A stretch of DNA of 32,000 bases. Source: Candidatus Saccharimonadota bacterium (GTDB lineage Bacteria; Patescibacteriota; Gracilibacteria; UBA4473). The notes below the pieces were generated by a model. It saw nothing but the letters and a program-made list of their open reading frames with translations. It did no database searches and had not been told where the DNA came from. The stretch is taken from positions 270,001 through 302,000 of the forward strand of contig OY781871.1 in NCBI GenBank assembly GCA_963677105.1, given 5' to 3'. Positions 1-19,000 of this stretch are shown piece after piece (within the stretch, counting starts at the first letter, position 1; each line of letters opens with the position of its first letter). The translations under genes and the position numbers were made by a program.

Positions 1-2075
1 TTTTCTCCATATCTATCTAGAACAAGCATTTGAACAAAGTCTCCTCTCGAAACAGCTCTTTCTAAATGGAGTTTCCCATTCAATTCTGGCTGGAGAATAT
101 TTTTTTCAACCAAATCCAAGACAAATGGCATTGCCCAGTGATTCGGATCAAAATCACGAACAAATGCTCTGTCACTTGGTAAAGCATTTTCTCTTCCTCC
201 AGAAATAATTGAAAAACAACGAAATAAAGTACAAAACTCAACTTCTGTCGCAACACCAAATGGTTCTGCAAATACTTCAGGGAAAAGAACAAATAATTGT
301 CGTTGTGCTGCAGAAAAAGGTGCAATTTTTATCCATCGATCTGGTGTCACTCGATCGTGGAAATCAAATGATCTCCAAATATTTTTCATATCTTTCCACA
401 AAGGAACTCCGTTTACAAGCTTAATCCCAGTGTCTTGCAACTCCGTATTTATTTTCCACAATTTATCAACAACAAGCCAAATATCTGTAGACGTAATCAG
501 TACTTTTTCTAACTCAGTACGCGTTGTGTTTTCAGTGAAAAACAAAGTTTTAATTCCAAATCTTCGTGAAATAGAAAGAATCGCATCCAAAGATTCTGTA
601 GAAAATATATGTTGCTTCTTTTCTCCCGTTTCTAATATTGTTGCTATACGCGAAGCAGCCCATTGTCGCGGAAGCCAATCAAACCAAGTCCGATCCTCAT
701 TTGATTGCAAAACAGAATCAATTCTTCCAACGAATACTGGTGAAAGCGAAGTAGATTGAGGAATCAATTCTGTCGGGAGAATTTCTTTTTCATTCTCTTG
801 CAAAAGAACATCTGATGCATACAAAGGATGACGACGATTTTCTACTGAAGAAAGTAATTCTTCTGCTTCTCTTGTTCCTAAAACACTTCTAAATGCTCGT
901 TGTACAACTCCTTTCGTCGCTACAGCAATCTTTTTCCATACAGAAGATTGTTCCGGTGAAAAAAACTGTAATACCGCAATCGGAGCTCCTCCAGAAACTG
1001 CTGAAATATCTTTCGCATCAGAAAAAATCATAAGAATATGATCTGTCACTGGTTGACTCACTCGAGAAAGAATCTCTGATATATCACATTTTCCTAATGG
1101 ATTTCTCCACGCAGTAGATTCAATGATTTTTTTTCTCAACGCAAGAGTATTTGGTTCAAAACTCTCATCATCTCCCACGAGCCATTCAATTCCTTCTGTT
1201 CCAATAAATGCTACTCGAAAAGATCTTTCCTCTTGGTGTTCTAATAAAAAACGAAGCAATTCCTGTACATGTGCCCATACATCTGACATTGATCCTGATG
1301 TGTCTAATAAAAGCGTAACATTATGAAACTCTTGCACTGGTGGCAACGAACGAAAATGCGCTACATATTCATGATCCCCTGTAAAAAATCGCGCTTCTGG
1401 ATCATTTTCTTTTGACCAAATAATTCGTAAATTTTTTGTTGGAAGAAATGAGGCAATTTGACGCAACGCAACAATTCCTGTTTCTGAACGATCCATTATT
1501 GCCTCCGATAAAAATGGCGACCAAAAATGTTGAATTGGGTCCATTTGTGCCACAGAAAATTCTATATGAAATAATTCATCTTCTATTCCGTCATTTAAAA
1601 AGATTTCTATCCCATCAAATCCTCCTTGATGAGAAACCGGAATATTGTATTCCAGAACCACTTCTACTGATTCATTCGGGAGAATAGAAAATTCTGTTGT
1701 TCGAAATACGCGCGTCCATGGATTTTCTGCCAGTCTAAAAAAACGAATATCTTTTTTTTCTTCTGCTGCGTCCGCTAGAGCGTCTAATCGAGCTCTATCT
1801 TGAAATTCTACAAGTGAAATTCCATTCGCATTTATAAAACATTTAATGTCTTTTGTTCCTAAGGAAGCTGGCCACCAAGAATGAGTTTTTAAGAGCTTTA
1901 ATGTTGGATTGAAAAAAACAGATCGTATTCGCACATGAGCGTCTTTTTCTATAACTGAAATTTCCACAGTCCTTTCCTTACGAATAAGCCCAGAATCCGG
2001 AACCCATGCAGAACATTCCTTCACACATATTAATGCAAGAAACATCAATAGAACATGTGTTACTCGAAATTTCAT
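1..2075 (-). CDS. Secreted von Willebrand factor A (vWA) domain protein with a VIT-like N-terminal region and an SLH-like C-terminal segment; 3-prime end runs off the window (partial, at least 691 codons)
   Basis: Absent from the supplied ORF track because it has no stop codon inside the window. My reverse-strand translation from the ATG at 2075-2073 stays open for 691 codons down to position 3. It begins MKFRVTHVLLMFLALICVKECSAW (signal peptide), followed by a beta-rich region where a VIT domain would sit. HNVTLLLDTSGSMSDVW carries the vWA DxSxS MIDAS motif (codons at 1304-1290). Near the edge, FDPNHWAMPFVLDLVEKNILQPELNGKLHLERAVSRGDFVQMLV is SLH-like. The + strand ORFs listed between 209 and 2194 are antisense shadows of this gene. 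Confidence 0.8.
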   Translation of the reverse strand, partial: MKFRVTHVLLMFLALICVKECSAWVPDSGLIRKERTVEISVIEKDAHVRIRSVFFNPTLKLLKTHSWWPASLGTKDIKCFINANGISLVEFQDRARLDALADAAEEKKDIRFFRLAENPWTRVFRTTEFSILPNESVEVVLEYNIPVSHQGGFDGIEIFLNDGIEDELFHIEFSVAQMDPIQHFWSPFLSEAIMDRSETGIVALRQIASFLPTKNLRIIWSKENDPEARFFTGDHEYVAHFRSLPPVQEFHNVTLLLDTSGSMSDVWAHVQELLRFLLEHQEERSFRVAFIGTEGIEWLVGDDESFEPNTLALRKKIIESTAWRNPLGKCDISEILSRVSQPVTDHILMIFSDAKDISAVSGGAPIAVLQFFSPEQSSVWKKIAVATKGVVQRAFRSVLGTREAEELLSSVENRRHPLYASDVLLQENEKEILPTELIPQSTSLSPVFVGRIDSVLQSNEDRTWFDWLPRQWAASRIATILETGEKKQHIFSTESLDAILSISRRFGIKTLFFTENTTRTELEKVLITSTDIWLVVDKLWKINTELQDTGIKLVNGVPLWKDMKNIWRSFDFHDRVTPDRWIKIAPFSAAQRQLFVLFPEVFAEPFGVATEVEFCTLFRCFSIISGGRENALPSDRAFVRDFDPNHWAMPFVLDLVEKNILQPELNGKLHLERAVSRGDFVQMLVLDRYGE

Positions 2076-2085
2076 ACTCAATAAA

Positions 2086-4314
2086 TTACTTTTTTTCTGT
2101 TACTGATACATCTTTGATTGCAGTAGACACGATTCCTCGAGAATCTGTAATTTTTAATTTCACAGGGAAAACACCTCCGTATGTGAATGTGTGAACTGGA
2201 TATGGCTCAACCGAAACAGAACCATCTCCAAATGTCCAAAAATATGATTGAATATTCCCTGTTGAAAGAGTTGGACTAAACCGCACTTTTAATGGTGCTT
2301 CTCCAGCCATTGGAGAAGTTTCAAATGCCGCTTGTAATACCTGTCCTCTTACAGAAATAAATATCTCTTTTTCTGCCCTTTTCCCTGAAGAAGTAAGCAC
2401 TTCTAATTTTACAGGAAACACTCCCACTTGCCGAAATTCGCGAGCAATTTTCCCGTTGTAATGAATTGGTGTTTCTCCTTGAAATGTCCAAATGTAATCA
2501 ATTATTTCTCCTTCTGTTGTTTGAGAACCAGCTCCGTCAAATTCAACGGTTAATGGTACTGTTCCAGAACTTGGATTTGCTGAAATATTTGCAATTACTC
2601 CCACCTTTTCAACCACAATTTTTTGTGTTTTCGTAAATTCATTATCATCTGCGTCAACAATTGTAAGCGTCGTTTCATATTCTCCCGGTGTACGAAAAAT
2701 ATATGAATCTGTTTGTTTTCGACTATCGACAATGTCATCTGTTTCAAAATCCCATTTCCATTCAACGGCATTTGGGATTTCTGATTTTGACGCATCAAAT
2801 GTTACTTCAAATGGAATTTTTCCACGAACAATATCATCTGCTCCTTTTGCTGGAACAGTTGTAATATTCATTTCTCTATAAGTTAATACTTTTACGAGTT
2901 GTTTTGTCGTGTCACGATCCCCAGAATCATTTTCAATAAGAAGTTCTACTTCATATTCTCCTTCTGTATCAAATTTTCTATACATTTTTCTTCCTAAAAA
3001 AGGCTTTGGTTCTCCATCTATTCTCCACTCAAATTTCACAATTTTCCCTGACTGAGAATAGGATTGTCCACCATCAAACGTAATTTCTAATGGAGCCATT
3101 CCTTCAAATGCTGAATCCGGTGAAACAATTTCTGCACGAACTTTTTGTTCTCCTTCAATAACGGTAATCGTCTTTTCGTCAATAGAAAAATCATGATTTT
3201 GTCCGGTAACACGCAATCGCACTTGATATTCCCCTATTTTATAAAATATTTTTTCAACTTCTTTTTCATCAACACCACGAATTTCAAATTCCCCATCTCC
3301 ATCCAAATCCCATTCATATTGAATAATTTCTCCATCTAAATCTGTTGATTTTTCTGCCGTAAACTTCACAGTCAATGGCACAGCTCCTGTCTCTGGTGTT
3401 GCAGTCATTACTGCTGCTGCCGCTACATTTGAAATCACAACATCATGCGTTTCTGTATAGGTTCGTTCTTCGTTCACATTTGGAGAAAAATAAACTACAT
3501 CTACTTTCATAGTATACCGTCCATCATTTGATCCTCGATCTAGAAATCTATGAGTAACTTCTGCTTCAGAAGCATCTGTTTCACCATCTCCATCGAAATC
3601 CCAACGAATTTCTCTTACTAAATCCTTTGGAATTTTTTCAAAAAGTTTCGTCCCAATATCAAAAGTAACTGAAACTGGTGCTGTTAACCCATAAAGACTT
3701 GCCGGTTGAGTTTGGATTAGTTTTTCAGACTTCGTCGTTGTCATTGGTGGCGCAGCATCTGCTCGAGAAACAAGCCATATAACTCCCATCCAAATTGCGA
3801 TCATCAATACTAACAGAAACACAAAAACTCCCATCTTTTTAAGATGATGTTTTTTGTATATCGACGATGATGACGTCATTATCCATTGAAAAAACTTCAC
3901 AAGCGTCGCGATCAAAAAGATAAACGACACTCCTCCAAAAAGAAAATGTGTAATAAGTGTAAATTTTTCTTTTAGCTGCACAGGATTCATTCCTGCCATT
4001 TCAAGAAACTGTGCAAACTGTGGATCATTGAAGTTCCCTTCAACAATAGTCCATAAGATAAAAACATATGCTACCGCAACAAGTCCCAAAACGATTGCTA
4101 TTAAGCCTACAAAAACTTGCGTAGCGGGTTTTTTCTGTTTTTTCTCTACCGGTGCTTCCTCTTCTTGTGTCGGAACTGATGCAACTTGTTCGTCCGTTAC
4201 ATTTTCCTCAGGAACTACTGGCTCTGCTGAAGGTGGCACAACTGGTGCAGGAGGAATTACTGGAGTTGTATTTTCCTCATTTTCAGGTGTCGGTACCGTT
4301 GGAATGTCTGTCAT
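2086..4314 (-). CDS. Membrane-anchored surface protein: Pro/Glu-rich N-terminus, three TM helices, six tandem PKD-like domains
   Basis: 742-aa ORF with TAA stop at 2086-2088. TM helices are GLIAIVLGLVAVAYVFILWTIV, FTLITHFLFGGVSFIFLIATLV and MGVFVFLLVLMIAIWMGVIWLV; the basic loop KKHHLKK places the C-terminal 540 aa outside the cell. PKD signatures: IRWDFDGDGETD, YEWDLDGDGEFE, FEWRIDGEP, WKWDFETDD, YIWTFQGETP, YFWTFGDGS. Confidence 0.85.
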   Translation of the reverse strand: MTDIPTVPTPENEENTTPVIPPAPVVPPSAEPVVPEENVTDEQVASVPTQEEEAPVEKKQKKPATQVFVGLIAIVLGLVAVAYVFILWTIVEGNFNDPQFAQFLEMAGMNPVQLKEKFTLITHFLFGGVSFIFLIATLVKFFQWIMTSSSSIYKKHHLKKMGVFVFLLVLMIAIWMGVIWLVSRADAAPPMTTTKSEKLIQTQPASLYGLTAPVSVTFDIGTKLFEKIPKDLVREIRWDFDGDGETDASEAEVTHRFLDRGSNDGRYTMKVDVVYFSPNVNEERTYTETHDVVISNVAAAAVMTATPETGAVPLTVKFTAEKSTDLDGEIIQYEWDLDGDGEFEIRGVDEKEVEKIFYKIGEYQVRLRVTGQNHDFSIDEKTITVIEGEQKVRAEIVSPDSAFEGMAPLEITFDGGQSYSQSGKIVKFEWRIDGEPKPFLGRKMYRKFDTEGEYEVELLIENDSGDRDTTKQLVKVLTYREMNITTVPAKGADDIVRGKIPFEVTFDASKSEIPNAVEWKWDFETDDIVDSRKQTDSYIFRTPGEYETTLTIVDADDNEFTKTQKIVVEKVGVIANISANPSSGTVPLTVEFDGAGSQTTEGEIIDYIWTFQGETPIHYNGKIAREFRQVGVFPVKLEVLTSSGKRAEKEIFISVRGQVLQAAFETSPMAGEAPLKVRFSPTLSTGNIQSYFWTFGDGSVSVEPYPVHTFTYGGVFPVKLKITDSRGIVSTAIKDVSVTEKK

Positions 4315-4316
4315 AA

Positions 4317-6893
4317 TTATGGTGCTGTTACGGTTATTGTTTCTGTGTCATGAGCATTTTCTTTTCCGTCAAAGACGGTAACTCGCACAATGTGTGATCC
4401 TATTTCATCAAAACGATGTGCAACATTATTCCCTCCAGATTGAGTTTCTCCACCTGGAAATGTCCATGTGTAAATCAAATCATCTCCATCTGGATCGTGT
4501 GCTTGAGTAAAGAATCGGAAAAGCGTACTTGTCGTTCCAGTATTTGATGGTGTAACAAATAAACTCACTGTTGGTGGAGCATTTCCAGACTCTGGAATAG
4601 TAATTGATTCTTCTTCAACAATCGATCGAACTCCTCCATCTGAATCCGTTAATTCTAATTGGAATATAACACTATGTGTTCCGACATCTAAATGCGATGC
4701 CAAATCCATAATCATTGTAACATTTCCATCTGCATCATCTGGAACCATGTCCCCTGAAAGCACTTGTACTTCCAGAATTTTTCCATACTGAGAAGCGACC
4801 AATCGATATTGATCAATTTCACCGTCTGGATCAACACTTGTAATACTTACATGAACTCCAGTTTCATCTGAAGAAACTCCTGTAATCTGTCCTCCTGGAA
4901 GAATATTTTCTACTTTAATCTGAAACGACATTGTTGATTTCTTGCTTGGATCTGCCTTCGAAGTAGCAGTTAATGAAATGTTATGTGTTCCTAATTGTGT
5001 AAAGATTTGCCCTAAATATTCCTCTTCAGTAATCGCTCCATTCCACTTCCATGTATGCGTCACATTCGCATTTTCTCCACAATTACCAAACTCATCACAA
5101 GAAGCTGTACTTAACGTCGGCGACTCAATTCCTCCATATATACGATCTACGGTTTTCGTACTATTCGGAATAATAGATTCTTCATCTAGCGCTGCAATCG
5201 CCGTTGGTGTTGCTAATGAAGCAACTACAACATTCTTCACTACATCTCCTCCTATTTGTGTTCCTTCTTCTCCTGCTGTATAAGCTTTTAATTTCACTCC
5301 CCACACACCAGCAACATCAAACGCATACAAATTAACATCTCCTGCAAACTCATCCGCACTTGTGAAATCCCAATTATTTATAGTTTCGTCAAATTCATTG
5401 GTAATAAACCATTCGTATCTTCCATCTGTCGGTGCTCCAGATGCTTTTAATTGAACTTGTTCGTTTTCTATAATTCTATTTGGAACGGTGAAATTAATCA
5501 GTCCCGCCTCAATGTTCTCATCCTGAATTTGAATCATTTCTTCTGTTGCAGGAGTAGTAATAATTGCTTCTGCTCCTACTTTCACCTTTACTACAAGGGA
5601 AATTGTAACCGCTCCTGGTTCATCAAATGTAGCAAAAAATGTTTTCTTTTGTTTATCTGCAACACCTTCGACCATTTTTTTCTCATTGAAATCAGTACAA
5701 ATGCTTTCAGGAACTCCAGCCGGAACACAATTCCATTCATAACCATCAATCGCTCCTGCTTCAATCATTGATCGAGAAGCATCAAATTCAATACTATTTC
5801 CAACTCTTGGATTTCCTGCTGGATTCATTTTTATTTTTGCTATCCCAATATCTCCCACCAATATTCGTGTTTGCCCAATAAAAGTGTTCCATGGATCTTC
5901 ATCCTGTGGATCCGGGTTTTCTTTTTTAATTCGTCCCATTACTTCTACTTCATACCATTTTTGCTCACTAAAAGATCTTGTAATTTGCCCATGTTGATTT
6001 TGTTCTGTTTCACTCGCTGTGTCATTAAAATAAGAACCTTCATAAATCCCACCGTCACCGAAATTCCATTGCACATCTTCTAACAAATCTCCTTCTGCAG
6101 ATCCACTAATGCTTTCCCCGCTAAGATAAAAATTAATATTATAATATTCTCCTAACATATAACCTCCAGAAGCTCCTAATTTATAGAGTTGCTCTTTACA
6201 AGCGGCTAGTTCTGGCGATCCCGTTTCGTCTGTACATTCTGCAATAATTTCAATATCTGTTACTACATCATCAACCGAAACATAATTCTGAACACCTTCA
6301 AAATTATCTCCCCCTTCAAGTGTTTTTGTAATCAATGTATTTACGATTGCATACGAACTCAATATCACAATTATTCCTATTGCTGCATATAAAATCATTT
6401 TTTTCGATTTCTCGTTATTTTCTTCTCCGCCTACGACATATAAATATCCGGCAAAAATAATTACGGCAACAGCCAGTATTCCCAGAAAACTCAACACCCA
6501 ATCAAGAACGTTGAGAATAAACTTCCGCAAATCTGTATTCGATCCGATCTGTCCGAATTTTTCCGCTTTCGGAAGTTTGAATTCTCCCGTCGGAAGCGGA
6601 CCAGCTCCTGATAGTCCATATCCATATAACTCTTTCCATTGTTGAAAACTTAAATCCTCCTCTGAATACGGACGCATATAATATTGCATTCGCAGATTAA
6701 AATCTTCGACATCACGAAACGCCTTTCCAACTGTTGCAAATCCTTTTTCCACAAGCGTTTTCCCCCATTTATCTCTATTACATCGTTTTTTTTCTGCTCC
6801 AGAATAATTATCACAATCTCCCCAAGCATGAACTACTGTCTCTCCAGTAAATCCAAACATAATAAGTATTACGATGACAAATAGTTTTTTCAT
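4317..6893 (-). CDS. Surface protein: signal peptide, TrbC/VirB2-like pilin hairpin, long PKD-rich ectodomain
   Basis: 858-aa ORF. Signal peptide MKKLFVIVILIMFGFTGETVVHAW. Two-TM hairpin at aa 120-189: DLRKFILNVLDWVLSFLGILAVAVIIFAGYLYVVGGEENNEKSKKMILYAAIGIIVILSSYAIVNTLIT. PKD-like modules include VQWNFGDGG, YEWNC, HTWKWNG and DPDGDDLIYTWTFPGGETQ...HRFDEIGSHIVRVTVFDG. The start ATG overlaps the upstream TGA (ATGA at 6890-6893). Confidence 0.85.
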   Translation of the reverse strand: MKKLFVIVILIMFGFTGETVVHAWGDCDNYSGAEKKRCNRDKWGKTLVEKGFATVGKAFRDVEDFNLRMQYYMRPYSEEDLSFQQWKELYGYGLSGAGPLPTGEFKLPKAEKFGQIGSNTDLRKFILNVLDWVLSFLGILAVAVIIFAGYLYVVGGEENNEKSKKMILYAAIGIIVILSSYAIVNTLITKTLEGGDNFEGVQNYVSVDDVVTDIEIIAECTDETGSPELAACKEQLYKLGASGGYMLGEYYNINFYLSGESISGSAEGDLLEDVQWNFGDGGIYEGSYFNDTASETEQNQHGQITRSFSEQKWYEVEVMGRIKKENPDPQDEDPWNTFIGQTRILVGDIGIAKIKMNPAGNPRVGNSIEFDASRSMIEAGAIDGYEWNCVPAGVPESICTDFNEKKMVEGVADKQKKTFFATFDEPGAVTISLVVKVKVGAEAIITTPATEEMIQIQDENIEAGLINFTVPNRIIENEQVQLKASGAPTDGRYEWFITNEFDETINNWDFTSADEFAGDVNLYAFDVAGVWGVKLKAYTAGEEGTQIGGDVVKNVVVASLATPTAIAALDEESIIPNSTKTVDRIYGGIESPTLSTASCDEFGNCGENANVTHTWKWNGAITEEEYLGQIFTQLGTHNISLTATSKADPSKKSTMSFQIKVENILPGGQITGVSSDETGVHVSITSVDPDGEIDQYRLVASQYGKILEVQVLSGDMVPDDADGNVTMIMDLASHLDVGTHSVIFQLELTDSDGGVRSIVEEESITIPESGNAPPTVSLFVTPSNTGTTSTLFRFFTQAHDPDGDDLIYTWTFPGGETQSGGNNVAHRFDEIGSHIVRVTVFDGKENAHDTETITVTAP

Positions 6894-8083
6894 ATATGAA
6901 AAGAGTTAATAATTTCTACTCTTGTAGAAAAGTCTGCTGTCATAAGAGTATTTACGATTGCATATGATCCTGCAATCACCAAGATACCTACAACAACCCA
7001 AATAAGAATTTTTTTTGCTTGCTCTTGTCTCGAACCATCTCCCATATCAGTAATATATAATATTCCTGCCCACACAACTGCGACTACAGCAATAATAGCA
7101 ACCAATTCAAGTGAAAATTTAACCCATCCCAGAATTAATGTTTTCAAGTCTACTTGATGAGAAATTGATTTCGTCAAATGATCATGTGCAATTAATGCTC
7201 CACTTCGTAATCCTCCGCCATTAAATGTCGCTCCTGGATATAACGAATCCATATTATTTCCACATTGCTCCAGCGCAACTCTTCTTCGTTCTCGTGCAGC
7301 CTCGTCTTGTAAGCTACTATTATACACTGTTTCTGCGTCTTCTATACATTTCCGACTTATAGCATTCAATCTATATCTTATCGCTCTTGCACATTTCTTT
7401 TTCCCTGCGCTAGTCATGTCTGCGGCATTTGTATCACAAAACGATTGTATATCTTCTGCCGTTCGCGGTTGATCACAGCTACTAGGAATTTCTTTTATCC
7501 AAAATGGATTATTTGGAGCCGAGCAAGCTCTATCTCCCGTGACTAAAACTGAAACTTGCTTTCCATCTGCCTTACTCTTACAATCACAAAACCCAATCAT
7601 TTCTGAAACGGCAGCATCCTCTAATCCTGGTCCCTTTAATTGACATTGGTCATTTCTCCATGCGCAATCTGAAGACCAAAAACATGTAAATCTATTTCTA
7701 GATTCACAATATCCAGTCTCGGGATAACAAGATTTTTTATCATCATTCCAATTACATCCCCTTTCAGTACAATATGCGTTCCTCTTAGCTAACCCTGGAT
7801 CATTCACTTCGTTATATAAAGTATTCACTTCCCAACAATCAGCAGCATTTGCATAACATCTTCCTGGAACAGGAACTCCATCCATATTTGTATATGGAGG
7901 ACTCCATTTACAATGAGAATAATTACCTATTTCACATATCGTAGAACCCGTATTCGGAGTTGCTTCACTACATTTTTTCAATGCTTCATCTGCCCTCACT
8001 CCACCAAGTGGCACAAAAAATATTCCCAGAAACATCCCCAGTACTAATCCGCGGAGAATTGATTGTGTTTTTGTTTTTTTCAT
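6890..8083 (-). CDS. Cys-rich secreted protein with C-terminal TrbC/VirB2-like pilin hairpin
   Basis: The track ORF runs 6890..8101 from a GTG. The ATG at 8083 gives a better signal peptide (MKKTKTQSILRGLVLGMFLGIFFVPLGGVRA). About 20 cysteines lie in a roughly 270-aa ectodomain. The C-terminal hairpin DLKTLILGWVKFSLELVAIIAVVAVVWAGILYITDMGDGSRQEQAKKILIWVVVGILVIAGSYAIVNTLMT is paralogous to aa 120-189 of the next gene. Confidence 0.8.
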   Translation of the reverse strand: MKKTKTQSILRGLVLGMFLGIFFVPLGGVRADEALKKCSEATPNTGSTICEIGNYSHCKWSPPYTNMDGVPVPGRCYANAADCWEVNTLYNEVNDPGLAKRNAYCTERGCNWNDDKKSCYPETGYCESRNRFTCFWSSDCAWRNDQCQLKGPGLEDAAVSEMIGFCDCKSKADGKQVSVLVTGDRACSAPNNPFWIKEIPSSCDQPRTAEDIQSFCDTNAADMTSAGKKKCARAIRYRLNAISRKCIEDAETVYNSSLQDEAARERRRVALEQCGNNMDSLYPGATFNGGGLRSGALIAHDHLTKSISHQVDLKTLILGWVKFSLELVAIIAVVAVVWAGILYITDMGDGSRQEQAKKILIWVVVGILVIAGSYAIVNTLMTADFSTRVEIINSFHI

Positions 8084-8236
8084 ACTAATGCATCTTGGCA
8101 CAGTGTAAGGTCTGAGCGCAAGTCTTGATTCATTTTTTTATTCAAAATCACTTGACTTACACGAATGAAAATGTAAAAGAAATATAACAAAGAAACAAAA
8201 ACAAAAAAGATTTCCCCTATTTGTGATTTTTGTTTC

Positions 8237-8995
8237 ATGATTCTCTCTCTCTTCGCTGCCCTCCTTTGCTTCTCAATAACGCCTGTTTACGCAGTTCCAC
8301 GGATTTCTCCCCCCGTACAAAAAACTCTTCCTTGGACCGGACATTTTTCAGCAAAGAATTTTAAAAAAACACGAACCGATAGACTGCGACTTTCGTTTGT
8401 AAAAAATCAAGTTCGAAAAACAATTTTGGCACTTCCAAAATGGCACACAAATGCACTCGATACACTTGAAATTCGCAATGAAGCAAATGTATCACGCGGA
8501 CTTTCTACTTCAAAAAAAATAATTCTTCATACAAATTCTATTGATACTACCGATGAATTGCAAAGCGTTTTTATTCATGAACTCGGTCATATTGTTGATC
8601 TTGGCGCGTTGAACGGAAAACAAGGAATACAAACAAATTTTCGAGATGGGAAACATCCTATTTTATCCGACGATCCAAGTGTGGAATTTTATAATATTTC
8701 GTGGACTTCTTTTAATTCGTTAAAAACAAGTGCTCAACAATCTGATTTTGTCTCTGGGTACGCAAAAACGGATTGTTTTGAAGATTTTGCTGAAAGTTAT
8801 CTTTTTTATCGATTACACGGTGAAAAATTTCGCGCACTCGCAAAAAATTCTTCCATTTTACAAAAAAAATACGAATTCATGAAAACAGTTGTATTCGATG
8901 ATATGGAATTTGAATTAGAAAAAGAAGATACCACAGTCGCATATTTATTTGATGCAACATTACTTCCTATAGAGACTTTACAAGCAATACGCTAA
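8237..8995 (+). CDS. Secreted zinc metallopeptidase, anthrax lethal factor / Pro-Pro endopeptidase-like (M34/ATLF-type motif set)
   Basis: 252 aa. Signal peptide MILSLFAALLCFSITPVYA. HExxH motif within FIHELGHIVD (H114/E115/H118). Downstream GYAKTDCFEDFAESY gives Y175-x6-E182-x-FAE, the Tyr-x6-Glu-x-FAE pattern I recall from anthrax LF and PPEP-1. Confidence 0.6.
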   Translation: MILSLFAALLCFSITPVYAVPRISPPVQKTLPWTGHFSAKNFKKTRTDRLRLSFVKNQVRKTILALPKWHTNALDTLEIRNEANVSRGLSTSKKIILHTNSIDTTDELQSVFIHELGHIVDLGALNGKQGIQTNFRDGKHPILSDDPSVEFYNISWTSFNSLKTSAQQSDFVSGYAKTDCFEDFAESYLFYRLHGEKFRALAKNSSILQKKYEFMKTVVFDDMEFELEKEDTTVAYLFDATLLPIETLQAIR

Positions 8996-11386: not shown

Positions 11387-11893
11387 ATGATAAAAACTCA
11401 AGAATTAGCTCGACCATTTCCATTAAGCAAAACCTTTGAATGGATACTTTTTTTTGTTTTAATCGGAACTGCACCATTAATTCTGCACGAACAATGGATA
11501 ACTGGTCCAATTGTAAACGCACTTTTGATTGTTGCTCTTTTTCAACTTGGAATAACTCAGGCAATAATTCTTGCTTTTATTCCGAGCGCAGCAGCACTTG
11601 CGATTGGAACATTACCAATCGTTCTCGCTCCAACAATCCCCTGTATTATTCTTGGAAATATTCTCTTCATTTCTGGTGTCCACGTTTTTCAAAGAAAACC
11701 ACTTCTCGGAGTTCTTGTGGGAGCAATTGTGAAGTTTATATGGCTGACAATTTCTACACAGTGGATTCTACAATTTTTCCTTTCTGAAACAATTCTTGGT
11801 CGTGTTACAACAATGCTTTCTTGGCAGCAACTAGCAACGGCACTGGTTGGTGGATATTTTGCTGTAAGCGTTTTAAAACTCGTGAAACGATGA
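11387..11893 (+). CDS. Small polytopic membrane protein (about 5 TM), function unknown; first gene of the hydrogenase operon
   Basis: 168 aa, hydrophobic, for example WILFFVLIGTAPLIL, ITGPIVNALLIVALFQLGITQAIILAFIP and LLGVLVGAIVKFIWL. Its stop overlaps the next start (ATGA at 11890-11893). Any ECF S-component-like similarity is only an impression. Confidence 0.6.
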   Translation: MIKTQELARPFPLSKTFEWILFFVLIGTAPLILHEQWITGPIVNALLIVALFQLGITQAIILAFIPSAAALAIGTLPIVLAPTIPCIILGNILFISGVHVFQRKPLLGVLVGAIVKFIWLTISTQWILQFFLSETILGRVTTMLSWQQLATALVGGYFAVSVLKLVKR

Positions 11894-12882
11894 ATGATCT
11901 TCTTGAAAAAATTGAAGCAGCTGGATTAATTGGGCGTGGAGGAACTGGTTTTCCGGTTTATAAAAAATGGAAATCTGTGTTAGCGGCAGAAAATAACGAA
12001 AAATTTGTTATTTGTAATGCATCAGAAGGAGAACCTGGAGTGAAAAAAGATTGGGAACTTTTATCCAAAGAAATGGATCAAGTTTTTGATGGAATGTGTC
12101 TCGCATGTAAACTTATTGGAGCAAAAAAATGCTGGATAAACTGCAATTATGAATATTTAAAAAAGCTAAAAAAATCGCTCGAAAAACAAGTAGAACGATT
12201 GGCAAAAAACAATATTGAACTCATTTTATTTGAAGAAAAAAAGAACTCTTATCTTGGTGGAGAAAGCAGTACAATTATGAATGTAATTGAAGGAAAAAAT
12301 GAAATTCCTCGAAGCAAAAAGTTTCACGCAACTGAACATGGATTATGGGGAAAACCAACTCTAATAAACAATGTGGAAACATTTTTTGATGTTGCTGCAG
12401 TTGCAAATGGAACGTTCGATAACACTCGGTTATATACCATTTCTGGAGCAGTAAAAAATCCGGGCGTATTTCGCGTATCATCAGAACTCTCCGTTCATGA
12501 TGTGTTAGAAAAAACAAATAATGCCATTGACCCAAAAAGTTTTGTACAAATCGGTGGTGGAGCTTGTGGAGAAATTCAACGAGGAAATAATCTAGATAAA
12601 CCAGCAATTGGTGCTGGATCTATTGAAGTTTTTCCTCTTGAAACAAAACCAAAAGAAATTCTCATTCGTTGTCTTGAATTTTTCGAAAAAAGTCTCTGTG
12701 GGACATGTACTCCTTGTCGAGATGGCGTTCCTCAAATTCTAAAACTTTTACAAGAAAATGAAGAAGTGTCGTGGAAAGAAATATTAGAAATCACAGAAGT
12801 ACAACGAATCTCTGCTTTTTGTGGACTTGGTCGATCTATTGATACACCTGTTCGATCCCTTTATGAATCTTTGCAAAAATGA
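11890..12882 (+). CDS. NuoF/HydB-like NAD(P)H-binding flavoprotein subunit (short form)
   Basis: The real start is the ATG at 11890 (MNDLLEKIEAAG); the track ORF begins upstream at a TTG. Motifs: GLIGRGGTGFPVYKKWK, ICNASEGEPGVKKDWELL (FMN/NADH site), and CGTCTPCRDG plus a distal CGLG (C-terminal 4Fe-4S). About 330 aa. Confidence 0.8.
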   Translation: MNDLLEKIEAAGLIGRGGTGFPVYKKWKSVLAAENNEKFVICNASEGEPGVKKDWELLSKEMDQVFDGMCLACKLIGAKKCWINCNYEYLKKLKKSLEKQVERLAKNNIELILFEEKKNSYLGGESSTIMNVIEGKNEIPRSKKFHATEHGLWGKPTLINNVETFFDVAAVANGTFDNTRLYTISGAVKNPGVFRVSSELSVHDVLEKTNNAIDPKSFVQIGGGACGEIQRGNNLDKPAIGAGSIEVFPLETKPKEILIRCLEFFEKSLCGTCTPCRDGVPQILKLLQENEEVSWKEILEITEVQRISAFCGLGRSIDTPVRSLYESLQK

Positions 12883-14588
12883 CAACTACCTTTTTTATTG
12901 ATGGACAAAAAGTAACTGCTAAAGACGGAGAAAGCGTTCTTCAAGCAGCACTAAACGCTGGATTTGATATTCCTCATGTTTGCTTTGGGGCTGAATTAAA
13001 AAGCACTGAAAGTTGCCGAACTTGTTTGGTGGAAAATGAAGAAACAGGACGCATTACAACCAGTTGTTCACTTGTTCCAAAAGAAGGAATGAAGCTCAGC
13101 ACCAAAACACCAATGGTTGAAAAGGGAAGAAAAATCAATTTAGAACTTTTGTTTGCGAATCATCAAAAAAAATGTCCCGATTGTGCGGAAGGTCGCTGGT
13201 GTAAAATTGCCGAAAAATGTAAATCTCGTGGATTAGATTTAAAAAAATTTGCACCACGAACTAAACAAGGGAAAATTGAACGTTTTTATGATGGCCCATG
13301 TATTGAGTTTGACCCAAATATGTGCATCAATTGTAAAAAATGTATTGAAGTTTGCCGAAGCTGTAGCACCGCTTTTCTCGCAGAAAAAGGAGAAGGAAAA
13401 CATGCAACAATGGGAACACTTACCGGAAAAGTGGCTTGTATTTTTTGTGGACAATGTACAACGGTTTGCCCTACTGGTGCACTTCGTGAAGTTCGATCAA
13501 TAAAACAAGCTGAAGAAGCGCTCGCTGATCCAGATATGTTTGTAATTATTCAACCAGCACCTGCGATTCGTGCAGCACTCGGAGAAGGATGGAATCAAAA
13601 ACCAGATAACACTTCTACGGGAAAAATGTACGCAGCTTTACGCAAACTGAATCCTAATAAAATATTTGATATTAATTTTGGTGCAGATATTACAACTTCT
13701 GTAGAAGCAAATGAGCTAGTAGAACGAATTGAAAATAATGGAGTTTTACCGATGTTTACATCTTGTTGTCCATCATGGGTACGATATGTAGAAAGCGTTC
13801 AACCGCAACTCATTCCAAATCTTACTTCTGCACGTTCTCCACATATTCATTCTGGAGTAGCATATAAGACTTGGTGGGCAGAAAAAAATAATATTGATCC
13901 GAAGAAAATTTGCGTTATTTCCGTTGTTCCCTGTACAGCAAAAAAATATGAAAGCAGTCGTAAAGAATTATTTATTAATGATAAAAGTATTCCACCAGTC
14001 GATATTTGTCTCACAACACGAGAACTTATTATCATGCTGAAATCTCGTGGAGTGGAGTGGAATAAACTGAAAGAAGACAAAGCTGATGCTCTTGCTGAAC
14101 ACTCTGGAGCTGCTGCAATTTACGGCGCTTCGGGTGGTGTAATGGAATCTGCTTTGCGAAATACGTATTGGAAATTGACAGGCAAAAATATGCCAAATTT
14201 GGACTTCAAACCGGTTCGCGGAATCCAAGGCGTAAAATCTGCAGAAATAAAAATCGGGAAATTAACTGTTCGAGTGGGAGTTATTTCCACTATTCGAAAT
14301 CTTCCTTTTATTCTTATGCAATTGAAAAAAGACCCAAAAGCATATCATTATATTGAAGTAATGGCATGTCCTGGTGGATGTATAAATGGTGGTGGACAAC
14401 CACAATATGAAGATAAAAACGTAGTGAAAGAACGACAAGAAAGTTTATATGATATTGATTCACACAAAAAAATTCGTACTGCTCATGAAAACAAAGAAGT
14501 ACAAAATTATTTAGAATGGATAGAAAAACAAGAGGAATCTATCAAAGAATCTTTTCTTGAAACACATTATCACGAAACGGAAATATAA
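12879..14588 (+). CDS. hydA: [FeFe]-hydrogenase catalytic subunit, CpI-like domain architecture
   Basis: 569 aa. N-terminal 2Fe-2S region (CRTC). His-ligated cluster HQKKCPDCAEGRWC. Two ferredoxin-type motifs (CINCKKCIEVC, CIFCGQCTTVCP). H-cluster motifs FTSCCPSW, VPCTAKKYE and EVMACPGGCINGGGQP. ATGA overlap with the flavoprotein gene. Confidence 0.92.
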   Translation: MTTTFFIDGQKVTAKDGESVLQAALNAGFDIPHVCFGAELKSTESCRTCLVENEETGRITTSCSLVPKEGMKLSTKTPMVEKGRKINLELLFANHQKKCPDCAEGRWCKIAEKCKSRGLDLKKFAPRTKQGKIERFYDGPCIEFDPNMCINCKKCIEVCRSCSTAFLAEKGEGKHATMGTLTGKVACIFCGQCTTVCPTGALREVRSIKQAEEALADPDMFVIIQPAPAIRAALGEGWNQKPDNTSTGKMYAALRKLNPNKIFDINFGADITTSVEANELVERIENNGVLPMFTSCCPSWVRYVESVQPQLIPNLTSARSPHIHSGVAYKTWWAEKNNIDPKKICVISVVPCTAKKYESSRKELFINDKSIPPVDICLTTRELIIMLKSRGVEWNKLKEDKADALAEHSGAAAIYGASGGVMESALRNTYWKLTGKNMPNLDFKPVRGIQGVKSAEIKIGKLTVRVGVISTIRNLPFILMQLKKDPKAYHYIEVMACPGGCINGGGQPQYEDKNVVKERQESLYDIDSHKKIRTAHENKEVQNYLEWIEKQEESIKESFLETHYHETEI

Positions 14589-15244: not shown

Positions 15245-17749
15245 TCAAGTCATCATAAGATCCGCTTCTCCTATTTGATTTCCTGGTTCTTCCTGCTTTT
15301 TCTCAACCGTAACAAATCCATTCTCTGTATCTGTTAAAGTATATAAATCTTCATCAATATTCACAGTATCTTTTTTAAACTCAATATTAGTTGCAAGATT
15401 TGCTAAATCTTCAAGAGAAGAATTCTGCAAACAAGCTCCATTAAGCTTAAGCGTACTTATCTTTCCCATATTGTTTAATTTAGGAGAAGTCATTCCTGAA
15501 GCATCAAGAGAATAGTCTAAAGTTGGAGGAATAAATCCACGAGGAATATCTCCTGTTATATTTGAAAGATTAAGCTCTCCTGTCATTTTTGTTCCAGAAA
15601 GGTCTAAATAGGAAAGTTTTCCTGAATCTTCTATTCCTGAAAGGTCAATGTTTCCTACATTTTTCGGAAAAACAACTCCTTGTGGAATTTCTTTTAAGCC
15701 ACTAAGGTCAAGTGTTCCATAAATTGTTTCTGGAAATGTAAATCCTTCTTCTGGAAGTTTTGTTACCCCAGACAAATCAGCATTTCCCCCTATACTATTT
15801 GGCATTTGAATATTTGTATACATATTCGCAGCATTCCACTCAATATTTCCAGGTATTGATAGCGGAAGTACCATGTCCTGTTCTCTCGTTAACCAAGGAT
15901 TATTTATTTGTATATCACCTTTAATTACAGTTTGAGAAAGATCTATAGCAGAATTTATTTCACCTGTTTCTAAATTATTCACTACTGCGGGACATTCTCC
16001 AGTTTTACTTAAAGTGAAATCAGCCAATGGAGCAATATGCATTTCATTATTTTCTTTCATTGTTAAAACAAATACCTGCCTCTTCCCATCATTTGTTATT
16101 GGAAAATATTCTAGTGTTCCTTCTTCCATATTACGTGTAATAAGATATGGATTATTATCTATTGTGGCTGATTTAGATGTCCCATCTTTTAATTGATTTA
16201 ATTTATTTACATCACTAAGTTCTGTATATTTCTCATCAATACCAGATTCCAAATTTACCGTCTTAATTACCAACGCTTCTTGTTTTTGTTTTTGAGCTAA
16301 AAATTCTTGATTAACAACACCCAAAGCTGCAATAGTATTTGGCCCAGCCCAACCATCAGCATCTGTGTTTATTTTCTTTTGAATTGCAATAACTCTGTCT
16401 TTTGATGTCACACTGTCATCAAAAGATAGTTTCAAGTAAGTAAGCATTTCTGGTGTTATTTTATCTAAAAATGCTTCATTCGCAGTAGTACGTGCTACTT
16501 CTCGTGCTCTTTGTTTTTGTGCCACTTCTTGTTCTTCTCTCTTAATTTCGTCCGAGATTTCCGTTATAATGTCTGGATAATTAGCCGTATAAAAAGAAAT
16601 ATCTGACATAGTAACACCTGTTCCCTCTAAATATGGAGCAAGTCCCTCCTTATCGAGAGTGGTTGTTTGCTCAGCATCCTGAGATGCAATTGATATATTT
16701 GTTATCTGCTCTTCTGTCCCATGATCTACTAAATATTTTTTTATTACATCTCGCATAGCAGCCTCTTCTTGTGTTCGTTTTTCTCTGTTTTCACGTCCTT
16801 GAGCACGTATCTTATCTCCTTTTTCATTAATACCGTTAATCAAAAAATTCATTGCTTCATTTAGTGAGTCCGTATGTAAGGAAGCATACTGATCTGTAGA
16901 AGTTCCTATTAAAACTTCATATTGAGTTGCCTCATGTATTTCATCCAGTCTTTGACTACAAATCAACTGTCCTACACAATAATTTTCAGGATCTTTACTC
17001 ATTATCGTTCGAGTAATATTACCAATAGATTCAGATGGATTTACTTCATATTTATTACTATCAAAAGCAGTATTTAATCTTTCTGTTTGCTTATTAAACT
17101 TTTCCAAATCAGTCATATTAGCAGTCTCTTCTACCTGCTCTTTTATTTCATCTTTATGGGCATTTAAGTAGTCTGTAATTTGTTCGGCTTGATTTCCTGG
17201 AATTCCCGCAAGAGATCTTAAGCCTTCATCCGAACGAAGCCATGTCTTGTCCCATACAACTATCCCATTTTTATTAGAAAATGTTTTGGTGATATAAGTT
17301 TCCCAATTTATTAAATTTGATGGAATATGTGTAAGCTCGGCTACAACATCTTCTAGAATACTTTCTGGATTTACCTGCATATTTTCTAACGTTCTTGTTG
17401 TAAGAACTTTCTGAATTTCATTTTCAAGATATTTTTTATAAGCCCTTATCTCTGGATCATTAATATAATTTTTATCTGTATCATACTCACCACTCAATCC
17501 ATGTCTCCTCTCTCTTACATCAACAAGAATTTGATCATAAAATTTTTGTTGTTCTTCAATCGTTAATTTCGATAAAGAATTCTCTATAATCTTATTGAAA
17601 CTATCAAATGAAGGATCTTGACTTGGAGTACCGCCATCCATTGCTTCTGTAATTTGTGTTTCATGCGTATTTAATGCATCGGGGGTTCCTATATTCCAGA
17701 GAAACTCATTATTTGTATCAAAATCCGAAAACGTGAATAAATTTTTCAT
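15245..17749 (-). CDS. Large acidic protein with a PG-binding-like motif and C-terminal leucine-rich-repeat-like array; no signal peptide seen
   Basis: 834 aa. Residues 450-477, DRVIAIQKKINTDADGWAGPNTIAALG, resemble a peptidoglycan-binding domain (PG_binding_1 type). Residues 655-755 carry repeated L/IDLSG units (ADLSGVTKLPEEGF, LDLSGLKEIPQGVVFP, IDLSGIEDSGKLSY, LDLSGTKMTGE, LNLSNITGDIPRGFIPP). The start overlaps the upstream stop (TAATG at 17747-17751). Confidence 0.75.
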   Translation of the reverse strand: MKNLFTFSDFDTNNEFLWNIGTPDALNTHETQITEAMDGGTPSQDPSFDSFNKIIENSLSKLTIEEQQKFYDQILVDVRERRHGLSGEYDTDKNYINDPEIRAYKKYLENEIQKVLTTRTLENMQVNPESILEDVVAELTHIPSNLINWETYITKTFSNKNGIVVWDKTWLRSDEGLRSLAGIPGNQAEQITDYLNAHKDEIKEQVEETANMTDLEKFNKQTERLNTAFDSNKYEVNPSESIGNITRTIMSKDPENYCVGQLICSQRLDEIHEATQYEVLIGTSTDQYASLHTDSLNEAMNFLINGINEKGDKIRAQGRENREKRTQEEAAMRDVIKKYLVDHGTEEQITNISIASQDAEQTTTLDKEGLAPYLEGTGVTMSDISFYTANYPDIITEISDEIKREEQEVAQKQRAREVARTTANEAFLDKITPEMLTYLKLSFDDSVTSKDRVIAIQKKINTDADGWAGPNTIAALGVVNQEFLAQKQKQEALVIKTVNLESGIDEKYTELSDVNKLNQLKDGTSKSATIDNNPYLITRNMEEGTLEYFPITNDGKRQVFVLTMKENNEMHIAPLADFTLSKTGECPAVVNNLETGEINSAIDLSQTVIKGDIQINNPWLTREQDMVLPLSIPGNIEWNAANMYTNIQMPNSIGGNADLSGVTKLPEEGFTFPETIYGTLDLSGLKEIPQGVVFPKNVGNIDLSGIEDSGKLSYLDLSGTKMTGELNLSNITGDIPRGFIPPTLDYSLDASGMTSPKLNNMGKISTLKLNGACLQNSSLEDLANLATNIEFKKDTVNIDEDLYTLTDTENGFVTVEKKQEEPGNQIGEADLMMT

Positions 17750-18072
17750 TATTCAAAAAGGTTATTAATTTGATCTTCAAGATCAGCAATCGTTTGTTCT
17801 TCTTCTTTTGCTGATTTTGCTTCTTTTTCTTTAGAACTTGCCACCATAGCTTTTCGAAAATCCTGTTTGATTTGTTTTATTAAATCAGGATTTGCAGTAA
17901 ACGCTTGTTTCAATATTTCTTCCTGTTTGTCTTGCGCATCAAGTAACAGTTTTTCTAATTTACTTTTTTGATTTTCATCAAGCGTTTCGAGCTTTTCTAA
18001 AACTTCTGCACGAGTCTCTCCTGAAAGAAGAATGCTCTTTTCTACGAGTTTACGGAGTTCATTTGTTGTCAT
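17749..18072 (-). CDS. Small acidic coiled-coil protein
   Basis: 107 aa, rich in Glu, Lys and Leu with heptad character (LEKLETLDENQKSKLEKLLLDAQDKQEEILKQ). Translationally coupled to the 834-aa gene. Confidence 0.65.
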   Translation of the reverse strand: MTTNELRKLVEKSILLSGETRAEVLEKLETLDENQKSKLEKLLLDAQDKQEEILKQAFTANPDLIKQIKQDFRKAMVASSKEKEAKSAKEEEQTIADLEDQINNLFE

Positions 18073-18093
18073 GATTTTTTATTAAATCCAGAC

Positions 18094-18122
18094 ATTCTAC
18101 CTTATTGAGACAAAAAAAACAA
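18094..18122 (-). promoter_or_regulatory. Candidate sigma-70 promoter for the 107-aa/834-aa operon
   Basis: Read on the minus strand: TTGTTT (18122-18117), 17-nt spacer, TAGAAT (18099-18094). This lies about 20 nt upstream of the ATG at 18072. Confidence 0.5.
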
Positions 18123-18180
18123 GTAGGACATCCGTGAGAACTTACTCTGTAATAGGTTTCGCTTCCTTTATAAAATATAT

Positions 18181-18209
18181 TTGCATTTTTCTGTTTTCCG
18201 TGTTACAAT
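18181..18209 (+). promoter_or_regulatory. Near-consensus sigma-70 promoter with extended -10 and no ORF downstream
   Basis: TTGCAT (18181-18186), exactly 17 nt of spacer, TGtTACAAT (18201-18209). This is the best promoter match I found in the window. Confidence 0.65.
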
Positions 18210-18215
18210 GTCCTA

Positions 18216-18747
18216 TCAACTTCGAAATTGAGCAATCAAATAGAAGTTGTTAAAGCACTTGTTCTTTTACACTGTTTATCGCTTTATTTTCGATTCAATC
18301 GTTGAAATTCCTTTGAATCTATTGAAGAAAGAATTCTTCCCCACTGTTATATTTATTTGGGAAAATGTTGAACCTACTTTCGTAACATGAAGTAATCAAT
18401 GGTCAGTACTTTGTAGTAATACAAAAGAAAAAACTACCTCAATGTTTTCGTCTAAGGTACTTTAAAAAGACGTTAAAAATCATCAATACGTTACCGCCGA
18501 ACCTAATTTATTCGGTTGATGATACTTCAGAAATTTTCATTAAATTATAAAATCTCTGAGTTGGATCAGACTGTCCAATGGCAAAAAAAAGGCTGTCATA
18601 AATAAGTACAAAGTTTTTTAATAATCTAAACCTTGCAACTAATTATGATAAAGAAAATAGTGTTATAAATAAGAATTAGACCCCAGGTACTTTTAAATCA
18701 AAATAGAAAATTCCCTACTATGGTTGTGCGTAGTAGGTATTTTTTTT
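18216..18747 (+). ncRNA. Candidate novel non-coding RNA of about 530 nt, family not recognised
   Basis: Bounded by the promoter at 18181-18209 and the intrinsic terminator at 18714-18747. All three forward frames are full of stops; the longest ATG ORFs are 7-8 codons. Local helices: 18217-18223/18243-18249; 18479-18486 plus 18497-18501 pairing with 18511-18523; and 18561-18565/18574-18578. Confidence 0.5.
18714..18747 (+). terminator. Rho-independent terminator
   Basis: CCTACTA(TG) stem, 6-nt loop, (CG)TAGTAGG stem, followed by TA and a T8 run (18740-18747). Confidence 0.7.
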
Positions 18748-18941
18748 ATGAAAAATTAAATACAAATAAATTTTTCCATTGTTGCCTTTGCGAATGCAGA
18801 ATAAAACAATTTTTCGCAATGAACGTAAAATATTGCTCGTAGTTCAAACTTCTTTGAACGGAGTTTGCAAGATTTAGTGAATAAGAAAATTTTATAAAAT
18901 ACCTCTCTTGTAATTATTAACTTAATTTCATTCAAATAAAT

Positions 18942-18970
18942 TTGCTTTCTCAAAAAAGTACACGTATCAT
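18942..18970 (+). promoter_or_regulatory. Candidate promoter of the perR-prx operon
   Basis: TTGCTT (18942-18947), 17-nt spacer, TATCAT (18965-18970). The predicted transcription start falls inside the operator at 18974-18992. Confidence 0.5.
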
Positions 18971-18973
18971 TTT

Positions 18974-18992
18974 ATTGAAAATCATTTTCAAT
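18974..18992. promoter_or_regulatory. Fur-family (PerR-type) operator, perfect 9-1-9 palindrome
   Basis: ATTGAAAAT-C-ATTTTCAAT. The inner 7-1-7 core TGAAAATcATTTTCA differs from the Fur 7-1-7 consensus TGATAATnATTATCA at one symmetric position. It lies 9 nt upstream of the Fur-family gene start. Confidence 0.65.
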
Positions 18993-19000
18993 AATAAAAA

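Follow-up and report, generated by a model that had tools for sequence, protein, structure and literature searches.

The stretch of DNA analysed here, referred to as the window, comprises 32,000 nucleotides (nt) from the genome of an uncultured, ultra-small bacterium of the Gracilibacteria lineage of the Patescibacteriota (contig OY781871.1, positions 270,001 to 302,000) and begins with four genes, A to D, encoding putative surface proteins. With a rough probability of 0.4, the most likely product of this conserved surface cassette is, in our view, an attachment complex rooted in the membrane and tethered to the wall, and not a self-contained pilus. In it, VirB2-like pilin genes of the Patescibacteria appear as modular proteins within a conserved pilin-PKD-vWA/SLH cassette, the parts of which are individually familiar. 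An initial annotation, made from the sequence alone, had presented the locus as a self-contained surface-appendage or attachment module. The features on which the analysis was based are the following, with positions in the window:

6890..8083, reverse strand: gene A, 397 amino acids (aa), with a signal peptide, a Cys-rich ectodomain of ~250 aa and a conserved segment leading into a C-terminal VirB2-like hairpin
6929..7147, reverse strand: hairpin of A, two transmembrane (TM) helices with the loop TDMGDGSRQEQAKK, placed by the Pfam stretch and the translation
4317..6893, reverse strand: gene B, 858 aa, with a signal peptide, an N-terminal segment of ~80 aa, a VirB2-like hairpin and six immunoglobulin (Ig)-like modules
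6333..6527, reverse strand: hairpin of B (aa 123-187), placed by the PF18895 stretch and the translation
4326..6284, reverse strand: ectodomain of B (aa 204-856), six beta-sandwich modules in the AlphaFold model, with a predicted local distance difference test (pLDDT) score mostly of 70-90
2086..4314, reverse strand: gene C, 742 aa, with a Pro/Glu-rich N-terminal tail, three TM segments (3760-4128) and six PKD modules (2095-3720)
1..2075, reverse strand: gene D, with a signal peptide, a VIT-like beta-sandwich (1341-2003), a vWA domain (876-1328), a helical middle region and SLH repeat 1 (6-170)
1290..1304, reverse strand: DTSGS motif in D, the DxSxS of the metal-ion-dependent adhesion site (MIDAS), from the translation
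8084..8236: intergenic region 5' of A, shared with the divergent gene at 8237-8995

The list of open reading frames (ORFs), the translations and direct reading of the sequence agreed on four tightly packed genes on the same strand, with the junctions that had been reported: an ATGA overlap in which the start of B lies on the stop of A, a 2-nt gap between B and C and a 10-nt gap between C and D, all read from the sequence. Together, A to D hold 2,688 codons, approximately 25% of the window, which matches the earlier estimate of about 2,690 codons and a quarter of the window. Gene D is cut by the window edge, so that 691 of its 818 aa are visible; its full-length protein is P0001. The start of A was taken as the ATG at 8083, as in the identical database protein P0028, while an upstream GTG at 8101 would extend A to 403 aa. 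Region 8084-8236 is presumed to contain the operon promoter, and promoter and terminator scans, themselves uninformative, detected no strong consensus promoter or terminator inside the four-gene block. The N-termini of A, B and D show a basic n-region, a hydrophobic core and a small-x-small site (VRA/D, VHA/W and CSA/W, respectively, the slash marking the site), and C contains three hydrophobic segments with a positive-inside pattern. These features, all read by eye, are in agreement with the previous statement that every product carries a signal peptide or a TM anchor; an extracytoplasmic location is plausible for all four proteins.

The evidence for a pilin-type root in A and B came from profile searches. 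PF18895 (T4SS_pilin, where T4SS stands for type IV secretion system) matched both proteins above its gathering cut-off of 26.6 bits, with 31.5 bits for A and 38.5 bits for B, and precomputed matches to the same family were found on the orthologues of both. The proposal that two products contain a TrbC/VirB2-like hairpin was therefore upheld through PF18895, while the TrbC/VirB2 model PF04956 fell just short of its cut-off. The NCBIfam Mbov_0395 pilin-like (conjugal-transfer) model also scored just under its cut-off on the hairpins, and two independent VirB2-type models near threshold would count in favour of membership in the pilin family. Both sequences present a signal peptide, assigned by eye, followed by two hydrophobic helices with a short charged loop. 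The hairpins of A and B are 39% identical (E 2e-14) and are, by this sequence similarity, paralogous. In the AlphaFold model of B (mean pLDDT 69), two helices (aa 120-154 and 156-190) precede the six beta-sandwich modules. Neither A (397 aa) nor B (858 aa) is as small as a pilin that consists of little more than the hairpin.

The hairpins are also the most constrained parts of their proteins when compared with the ectodomains. Among orthologues, the mean pairwise identity of A was 82% in the hairpin versus 48% in the ectodomain, while that of B was 71% in the hairpin versus ~35% in the Ig modules. The segment immediately before the hairpin of A is also strongly conserved, and 18 Cys residues of its ectodomain are invariant in 19 orthologues. 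Orthologues of B range from 858 to 2,219 aa, with the B of the window as the shortest. The constraint on the hairpin is more than would be expected for a plain membrane anchor.

With regard to the ectodomains, the modules of B resembled generic multi-Ig arrays in the PDB, as determined by Foldseek, including the assembly domain of the surface-layer (S-layer) protein Sap and SbsB. At the sequence level, only the last module of B (4326-4583, aa 771-856) was recognised as PKD (PKD_4, E 1.2e-14), and the remaining five are Ig-like in the AlphaFold model only. Protein C matched PKD_4 in 5 stretches (E 5e-56), and a self-built hidden Markov model (HMM) placed six PKD modules that tile aa 199-740. 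Repeated beta-sandwich modules of ~85 aa matching the PF18911/PF00801 profiles are thus present in C, with one such module in B. The previous count of at least ten PKD-like modules in the two proteins holds by fold, where B and C total 12 Ig-like modules, but not by sequence, where only 7 are PKD. Identity among orthologues of C was even, at 59-74% in every region. The TM region of C was also considered as a degenerate third hairpin, which was ruled out by an hhalign probability of 1.4%.

Protein D combines a predicted VIT-vWA head with a wall-binding tail, and the earlier description of a vWA domain with DxSxS plus an SLH segment in the last product was substantiated. Across 13 family members, D258, G261 and S262 of the DTSGS motif are invariant and S260 is at least 90% conserved; even the most divergent D (locus L019, 21% identical) retains the motif as DQSGS, and the downstream Asp (D353, in an FSD motif) is conserved. 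The best PDB match of the D model was the inter-alpha-inhibitor heavy chain 1 (ITIH1, 6fpy), with its VIT and vWA domains (E 5e-19), which suggests a Rossmann-like vWA fold in the modelled protein; the pLDDT was 60-88 across aa 250-370. Sub-threshold VIT and VWA_2 matches were found at the same positions in relatives of D, while the fragment of D in the window had no Pfam match. PF00395 (SLH) matched full-length D in 2-3 stretches (E 1.3e-20, 73.6 bits versus a cut-off of 20.8), and the D family profile matched the SLH region of Bacillus anthracis Sap with an E-value of 5e-12. The SLH repeats of D are three: repeat 1 (6-170), the sole one inside the window, is degenerate (SRGD), and repeats 2 and 3, beyond the window, carry SRAE and TRAE.

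The order A-B-C-D was kept in all nine relatives in which it was visible (L001, L004, L006/7, L013, L014, L016, L018, L019 and L020, with partial coverage in L010). The relatives that bear names are metagenome-assembled genomes (MAGs) labelled Candidatus Peribacteria and Candidatus Gracilibacteria. Identity of D to the window protein fell from 63% to 21% across them, and each locus contained exactly two hairpin genes. Co-conservation and synteny of the four genes, proposed as a check on the initial annotation, were therefore found in every relative examined. The two relatives most distant among those with a called gene, L018 and L019, have in place of A a near-canonical pilin of 188-196 aa with little more than a signal peptide, a linker and a hairpin. 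Since these distant relatives hold a short pilin at this position, the Cys-rich domain of A is a later addition in the clade of the window.

Several individual loci showed particularities. In L020 (14631-19351), the public annotation joins C and the beginning of D in one product of 1,201 aa and has no call for the remainder of D, although D is present at 16895-19351 with 37% identity by tblastn. A frameshift or an error in gene calling seems to be the cause, and therefore precomputed tables can hide the cassette. In L019 (1-8834, on a 1.33-Mb contig), B appears split into ORFs of 654 and 1,151 aa, and the cassette adjoins another SLH protein, one that is fused to a beta-propeller. In the Gracilibacteria MAG L018 (17775-21027), the cassette is followed downstream by two genes of the GIY-YIG type, a bAvd-like gene and one for a reverse transcriptase, a group that, as far as its sequence indicates, looks like a diversity-generating retroelement.

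We also looked for a link to secretion or pilus machinery. No assembly ATPase or other T4SS or pilus-assembly gene was detected in the window, which covers 24 kb upstream of the cassette, and the 20-kb loci of the relatives contained neither virB4 nor virB6 nor other machine genes. Hence, the window has no canonical T4SS or type IV pilus locus, in which an assembly ATPase and platform genes would adjoin the pilins. The window ends 127 codons before the stop of D, and the downstream side of D lies outside it. In four of the nine relatives with downstream sequence, a gene for a VirD4-like ATPase was located one gene (pyrE) beyond D. There, the operon following pyrE encodes a ~940-aa VirD4-like coupling ATPase (DUF8128 plus T4SS-DNA_transf) and then a ~2,000-aa surface protein with CLIPPER/DUF11 repeats, at these positions:

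L004, 13176-22333: VirD4-like and CLIPPER/DUF11 operon
L006, 13208-21763: VirD4-like and CLIPPER/DUF11 operon
L013, 10774-19391: VirD4-like and CLIPPER/DUF11 operon
L020, 20620-24620: VirD4-like and CLIPPER/DUF11 operon

Other genes follow D in the five remaining lineages with downstream sequence, and in L001, L010 and L012 a Fib_succ_major gene stands in place of the VirD4-like operon. The adjacency of the VirD4-like gene to D is a weak hint only, because pyrE intervenes and the whole neighbourhood is collinear. The statement that no ATPase lies nearby thus holds for the 24 kb upstream, whereas on the downstream side, where the four relatives have the VirD4-like gene, it is unverified. Genes similar to pilB, pilC and pilO of type IV pili were present 6-10 kb upstream of the cassette in L019 only. 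The 208-aa phosphoribosyltransferase encoded after D in the relatives had been considered as ComFC; it is pyrE, so the link to DNA uptake was dropped.

The hairpin reaches far beyond this locus. A profile built from the hairpins of A and B matched 45,328 representative proteins (E<=0.001) in a library of 1.84 billion proteins. Among the top matches, 31 of the 49 with a single hairpin were at least 400 aa long, and an N-proximal hairpin followed by a PKD array was found in 10 of 10 long relatives sampled. Since long PKD-bearing forms are common among the profile matches, the combination of a hairpin with a large ectodomain is widespread and not unique to the locus. The remark that no characterised system has this composition had to be given up to this extent, hairpin and PKD-array proteins being common; our literature search found no paper describing pilin-PKD fusions or the four-gene cassette. 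Other matches to the profile were chains in which 2 to 11 or more PF18895-like hairpins stand in tandem (P0048, P0053, P0050, P0075 and P0080), for example, with 7 hairpins along 641 aa or 11 along 1,147 aa. The common view of pilins as small monomers leaves such poly-pilin chains unexplained. Read-through of tandem pilin genes was rejected as their origin, as the hairpins are joined by Gly/Ser/Thr-rich linkers and there are no internal starts or signal sequences.

Published data place the family in T4SS biology. PF18895 and PF04956 have been used to map VirB2-like pilins across Patescibacteria, where 441 arrays of 2-11 VirB2-like pilin genes were found (Quinonero-Coronel et al. 2025, PMC12102498). 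In the same study, the T4SS components of Gracilibacteria were largely unclustered with virB4, and VirD4-like type IV coupling proteins (T4CPs) were numerous in Patescibacteria and mostly encoded far from virB4 (PMC12102498). In Southlakia, a T4SS cluster that includes a VirB2-like pilin array is essential for epibiotic growth (Wang et al., PMC10633639), and a 2025 review regards the T4SSs of Patescibacteria as the only monoderm ones with the potential for conjugative-type pili (PMC12857230). With respect to surface proteins, large and often Cys-rich extracellular proteins together with S-layer genes have been reported for Ca. Peribacter riflensis and Peribacteria (PMC4736985), and giant membrane proteins of the PKD, DUF11 and integrin types, with an inferred role in host attachment, for Vampirococcus lugosii (PMC8080830).

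In the attachment complex that we propose, A and B would be inserted by Sec with both termini outside, a topology that fits the positively charged loop and the position of the ectodomain, before the hairpin in A but after it in B. The two-helix hairpin would serve as the conserved root, through which A and B would associate in the membrane, and might dock to T4SS parts encoded elsewhere; co-production of the two proteins would fit the ATGA coupling of their genes. The disulphide-rich domain of A and the length-variable Ig-like chain of B would face outward, and the rapid change of B in both sequence and length points to B as the specificity element. Protein C, which evolves slowly, would have an anchor of its own and form a stalk of six PKD modules. 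Finally, D would be secreted and held on wall polysaccharide through its three SLH repeats, while its VIT-vWA head may grip the stalks or a ligand on a partner cell by means of the metal-ion site.

A number of observations weigh against this proposal. The hairpins score below the cut-off of PF04956 (25.1 bits for A and 26.1 for B versus 27.9), and a search of the PDB with the hairpin profile matched no solved pilin. For the vWA domain, no conserved Thr was found at the loop of D where the MIDAS Thr is expected (P-L-G-K-x-[DN]-[IV]), and Pfam matches were sub-threshold (PF00092 with E 0.15 on P0001; VWA_2 with E 5e-4 and 21.1 bits versus 27 on P0012); the D model has a mean pLDDT of 52 and is good only in aa 30-190 and 250-370. 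Export signals and topology were read by eye from the sequence and not by a predictor. In addition, the flanking housekeeping genes (EamA, HAD and pyrE) are also collinear among the relatives, and some of the synteny may therefore be due to a general collinearity in the lineage and not to selection on the cassette. Domain identities, the conservation pattern and synteny were observed; it is the topology, the physical association of A to D, the attachment function and any extrusion of the hairpins as a polymer that we infer.

A possible, albeit doubtful, alternative is a true T4SS pilus, in which a VirB4-type machine encoded elsewhere would polymerise A, as the ancestral short pilin, and B, as an adhesin-bearing one, into a pilus of the conjugative type bearing Ig-like stalks along it or at its tip, with C and D acting as a wall collar or anchoring site. 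Placement of A and B in PF18895 and the strong conservation of the hairpin and pre-hairpin segment argue for it, and the short pilin next to a modular B in L018 and L019 resembles a major pilin with a minor adhesin pilin. Moreover, modular pilins are known among type IV pili, an example being Streptococcus sanguinis PilB with its grafted vWA domain, and short epitopes fused to the C-terminus of F-pilin are displayed on F pili. Essential pilin arrays and possible pili in Patescibacteria (PMC10633639, PMC12857230) are further points in favour. The absence of virB4, virB6 and other machine genes from the 32-kb window and the 20-kb loci of the relatives counts against this pilus, but says little, because the T4SS parts of Gracilibacteria are mostly located away from virB4 (PMC12102498), and this dispersal is itself compatible with a remote machine. 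Similarly, the VirD4-like gene one gene past D in four lineages would support a T4SS pilus, whereas the abundance of T4CP homologues mostly unlinked to virB4 (PMC12102498), the interruption by pyrE and the missing adjacency in five lineages diminish its value. No T4SS pilus has been reported for any bacterium belonging to the candidate phyla radiation (CPR) in the literature found. Bulky ectodomains (~30 and ~70 kDa) would probably hinder threading through the wall in the clade of the window, and since both proteins carry them there, a polymer of only A and B is sterically doubtful. A more specific version, according to which A and B would be the first modular VirB2-type pilins, polymerised by a remote T4SS into an adhesin-bearing pilus that passes through a vWA-SLH collar, is unlikely.

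A structural envelope layer, that is, an S-layer-like or spacer lattice of Ig arrays on membrane roots with an SLH partner and without a role in host attachment, is quite improbable. Such a layer would account for the three SLH repeats in D, which are of the tether type of S-layers (Sap), for the match of the B ectodomain model to the Sap assembly domain and SbsB among other Ig arrays, and for the uniform and high, structural-protein-like conservation of C; S-layer genes are reported in Peribacteria (PMC4736985), and a further SLH protein adjoins the cassette in L019. Nevertheless, the Foldseek matches to Ig arrays are generic, the vWA/MIDAS head is a ligand-binding module, and the fast evolution of the B ectodomain, with a ~2.6-fold change in length between close relatives, is more typical of adhesins. 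As for an appendage that lacks an assembly ATPase of its own and in which the pilin-like subunits polymerise alone, the vWA/SLH protein serving as cap or tether, the tight packing and constant co-occurrence of the four genes and the lack of an ATPase gene in the cassette or 24 kb upstream are consistent with it. However, to our knowledge every characterised VirB2-family pilus requires the VirB4 ATPase, which makes a self-assembling pilus the least likely reading and a very improbable one. Outside this locus, the hairpin family is tied to T4SS biology (PMC12102498, PMC10633639), and the side of D on which the window is cut is the one bearing the VirD4-like gene in four relatives. Since the family is T4SS-linked and the VirD4-like gene lies near D in those relatives, a self-contained pilus is unlikely, and the term "self-contained" was abandoned. 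A membrane-rooted, wall-tethered attachment complex is thus the reading that we favour.

Compared with known systems, the closest likeness is to the T4SS pilin arrays of Patescibacteria, including Southlakia epibionticum SEML1_0006-0019, which share with the cassette the hairpin family, the phylum and the lack of an evident relaxase. Adjacent, divergent pilin genes are found in those arrays as in A/B, with a published average identity of 25% versus 39% for A/B. The array pilins, however, are small and lie in or near the virB4 cluster, whereas A and B reach 397 and 858 aa with large ectodomains and, unlike the arrays, precede a PKD stalk gene and a VIT-vWA-SLH gene, with no virB4 in the 32 kb. 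A similar design, namely, a polymerisation or anchoring module with a grafted adhesion module and a MIDAS vWA associated with a filament system, is known from modular type IV pilins and vWA pilus adhesins, such as S. sanguinis PilB/PilC and PilY1, and from the sortase-pilus tips RrgA and GBS104. The fold and assembly machinery of type IV and sortase pilins are unrelated to the VirB2 hairpin, and the vWA domain of the cassette is located on a separate SLH-tethered protein and not on the pilin, as in modular type IV pilins. The N-terminal half of D has the same VIT plus vWA order (~440 columns) and DxSGS motif as ITIH1 (6fpy) and bacterial VIT-vWA proteins, but is only 14% identical to ITIH1, and D adds a helical region of ~235 aa and three SLH repeats. 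With SLH-anchored S-layer proteins (Bacillus anthracis Sap and Geobacillus SbsB), the cassette shares the tandem SLH repeats of D, and the multi-Ig ectodomain of B is of the type seen in the Sap assembly domain; in Sap, an N-terminal SLH region and the Ig array form one protein, whereas in the cassette the SLH repeats are C-terminal in D and the Ig arrays are in the membrane-rooted B and C. The surface proteins of Vampirococcus lugosii and Ca. Peribacter riflensis come from the same broad lineage and include large attachment-type proteins, some of them Cys-rich, but the reports mention neither a pilin-type hairpin root nor a four-gene cassette (PMC8080830, PMC4736985).

The remaining window is ordinary chromosome, with genes for an [FeFe]-hydrogenase, ribonucleotide reductase, Fur, peroxiredoxin, desulfoferrodoxin, RimK and a MacB/HlyD efflux pump; the window as a whole contains no Rfam family or tRNA. 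Divergent from A, the gene at 8237-8995 (forward strand) encodes a 252-aa secreted, metallopeptidase-like protein with an HExxH motif (FIHELGH), which is present in the same position in all relatives with 55-71% identity; it is possible that this putative enzyme processes proteins of the cassette. At 11821-14588 (forward strand), a gene for a NuoF-like flavoprotein overlaps by 4 nt a full-length [FeFe]-hydrogenase gene with a small-subunit domain; the Ca. Peribacter riflensis paper describes only a single hydrogenase subunit for that group (PMC4736985). The segment 15245-18072 (reverse strand) contains the gene of an 834-aa protein with no Pfam match and with C-terminal "DLSG" repeats similar to leucine-rich repeats, preceded by that of a 107-aa, Lys/Glu-rich and mostly charged protein; the two genes share base 17749, and neither product has an obvious signal peptide. 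These proteins were examined as divergent VirB4 and VirB3 and rejected, as they showed no P-loop or TM features. Between divergent genes, a 0.93-kb AT-rich stretch (18073-19000; window GC 0.29) without a supported ORF lies upstream of the fur-peroxiredoxin-desulfoferrodoxin cluster and showed no Rfam match and no cluster of DnaA boxes. 9-mers with at most one mismatch to TTATCCACA were enriched in the window (24 versus 10.3 +/- 3.3 expected; none of 100 shuffles reached 24). These DnaA-box-like 9-mers are scattered over coding sequence and unclustered, and a replication origin near the gap at 18-19 kb was discarded; their enrichment may stem from oligonucleotide bias.

The cassette bears on the role of the essential VirB2-like pilins of Patescibacteria and on host recognition in the CPR, as it shows a T4SS-pilin hairpin rooting surface proteins that are very large and fast-evolving, combined with a putative metal-dependent binding domain and a wall tether. 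It suggests as hypotheses that the ectodomains set the host range, that the hairpin is an assembly module and that the SLH repeats are the wall anchor, and A to D constitute a defined gene set to trace in metaproteomes and by cryo-electron tomography. Should the hairpins only anchor proteins in the membrane, the name "T4SS pilin", which Pfam gives to tens of thousands of proteins, would call for qualification. If, on the other hand, A and B were polymerised by a remote T4SS, the modular VirB2 pilus would be a host-specific grappling organelle of CPR bacteria of the Gracilibacteria/Peribacteria type, with a rapidly evolving, length-variable reach, and the tandem poly-hairpin proteins would be covalently pre-linked pilus segments.

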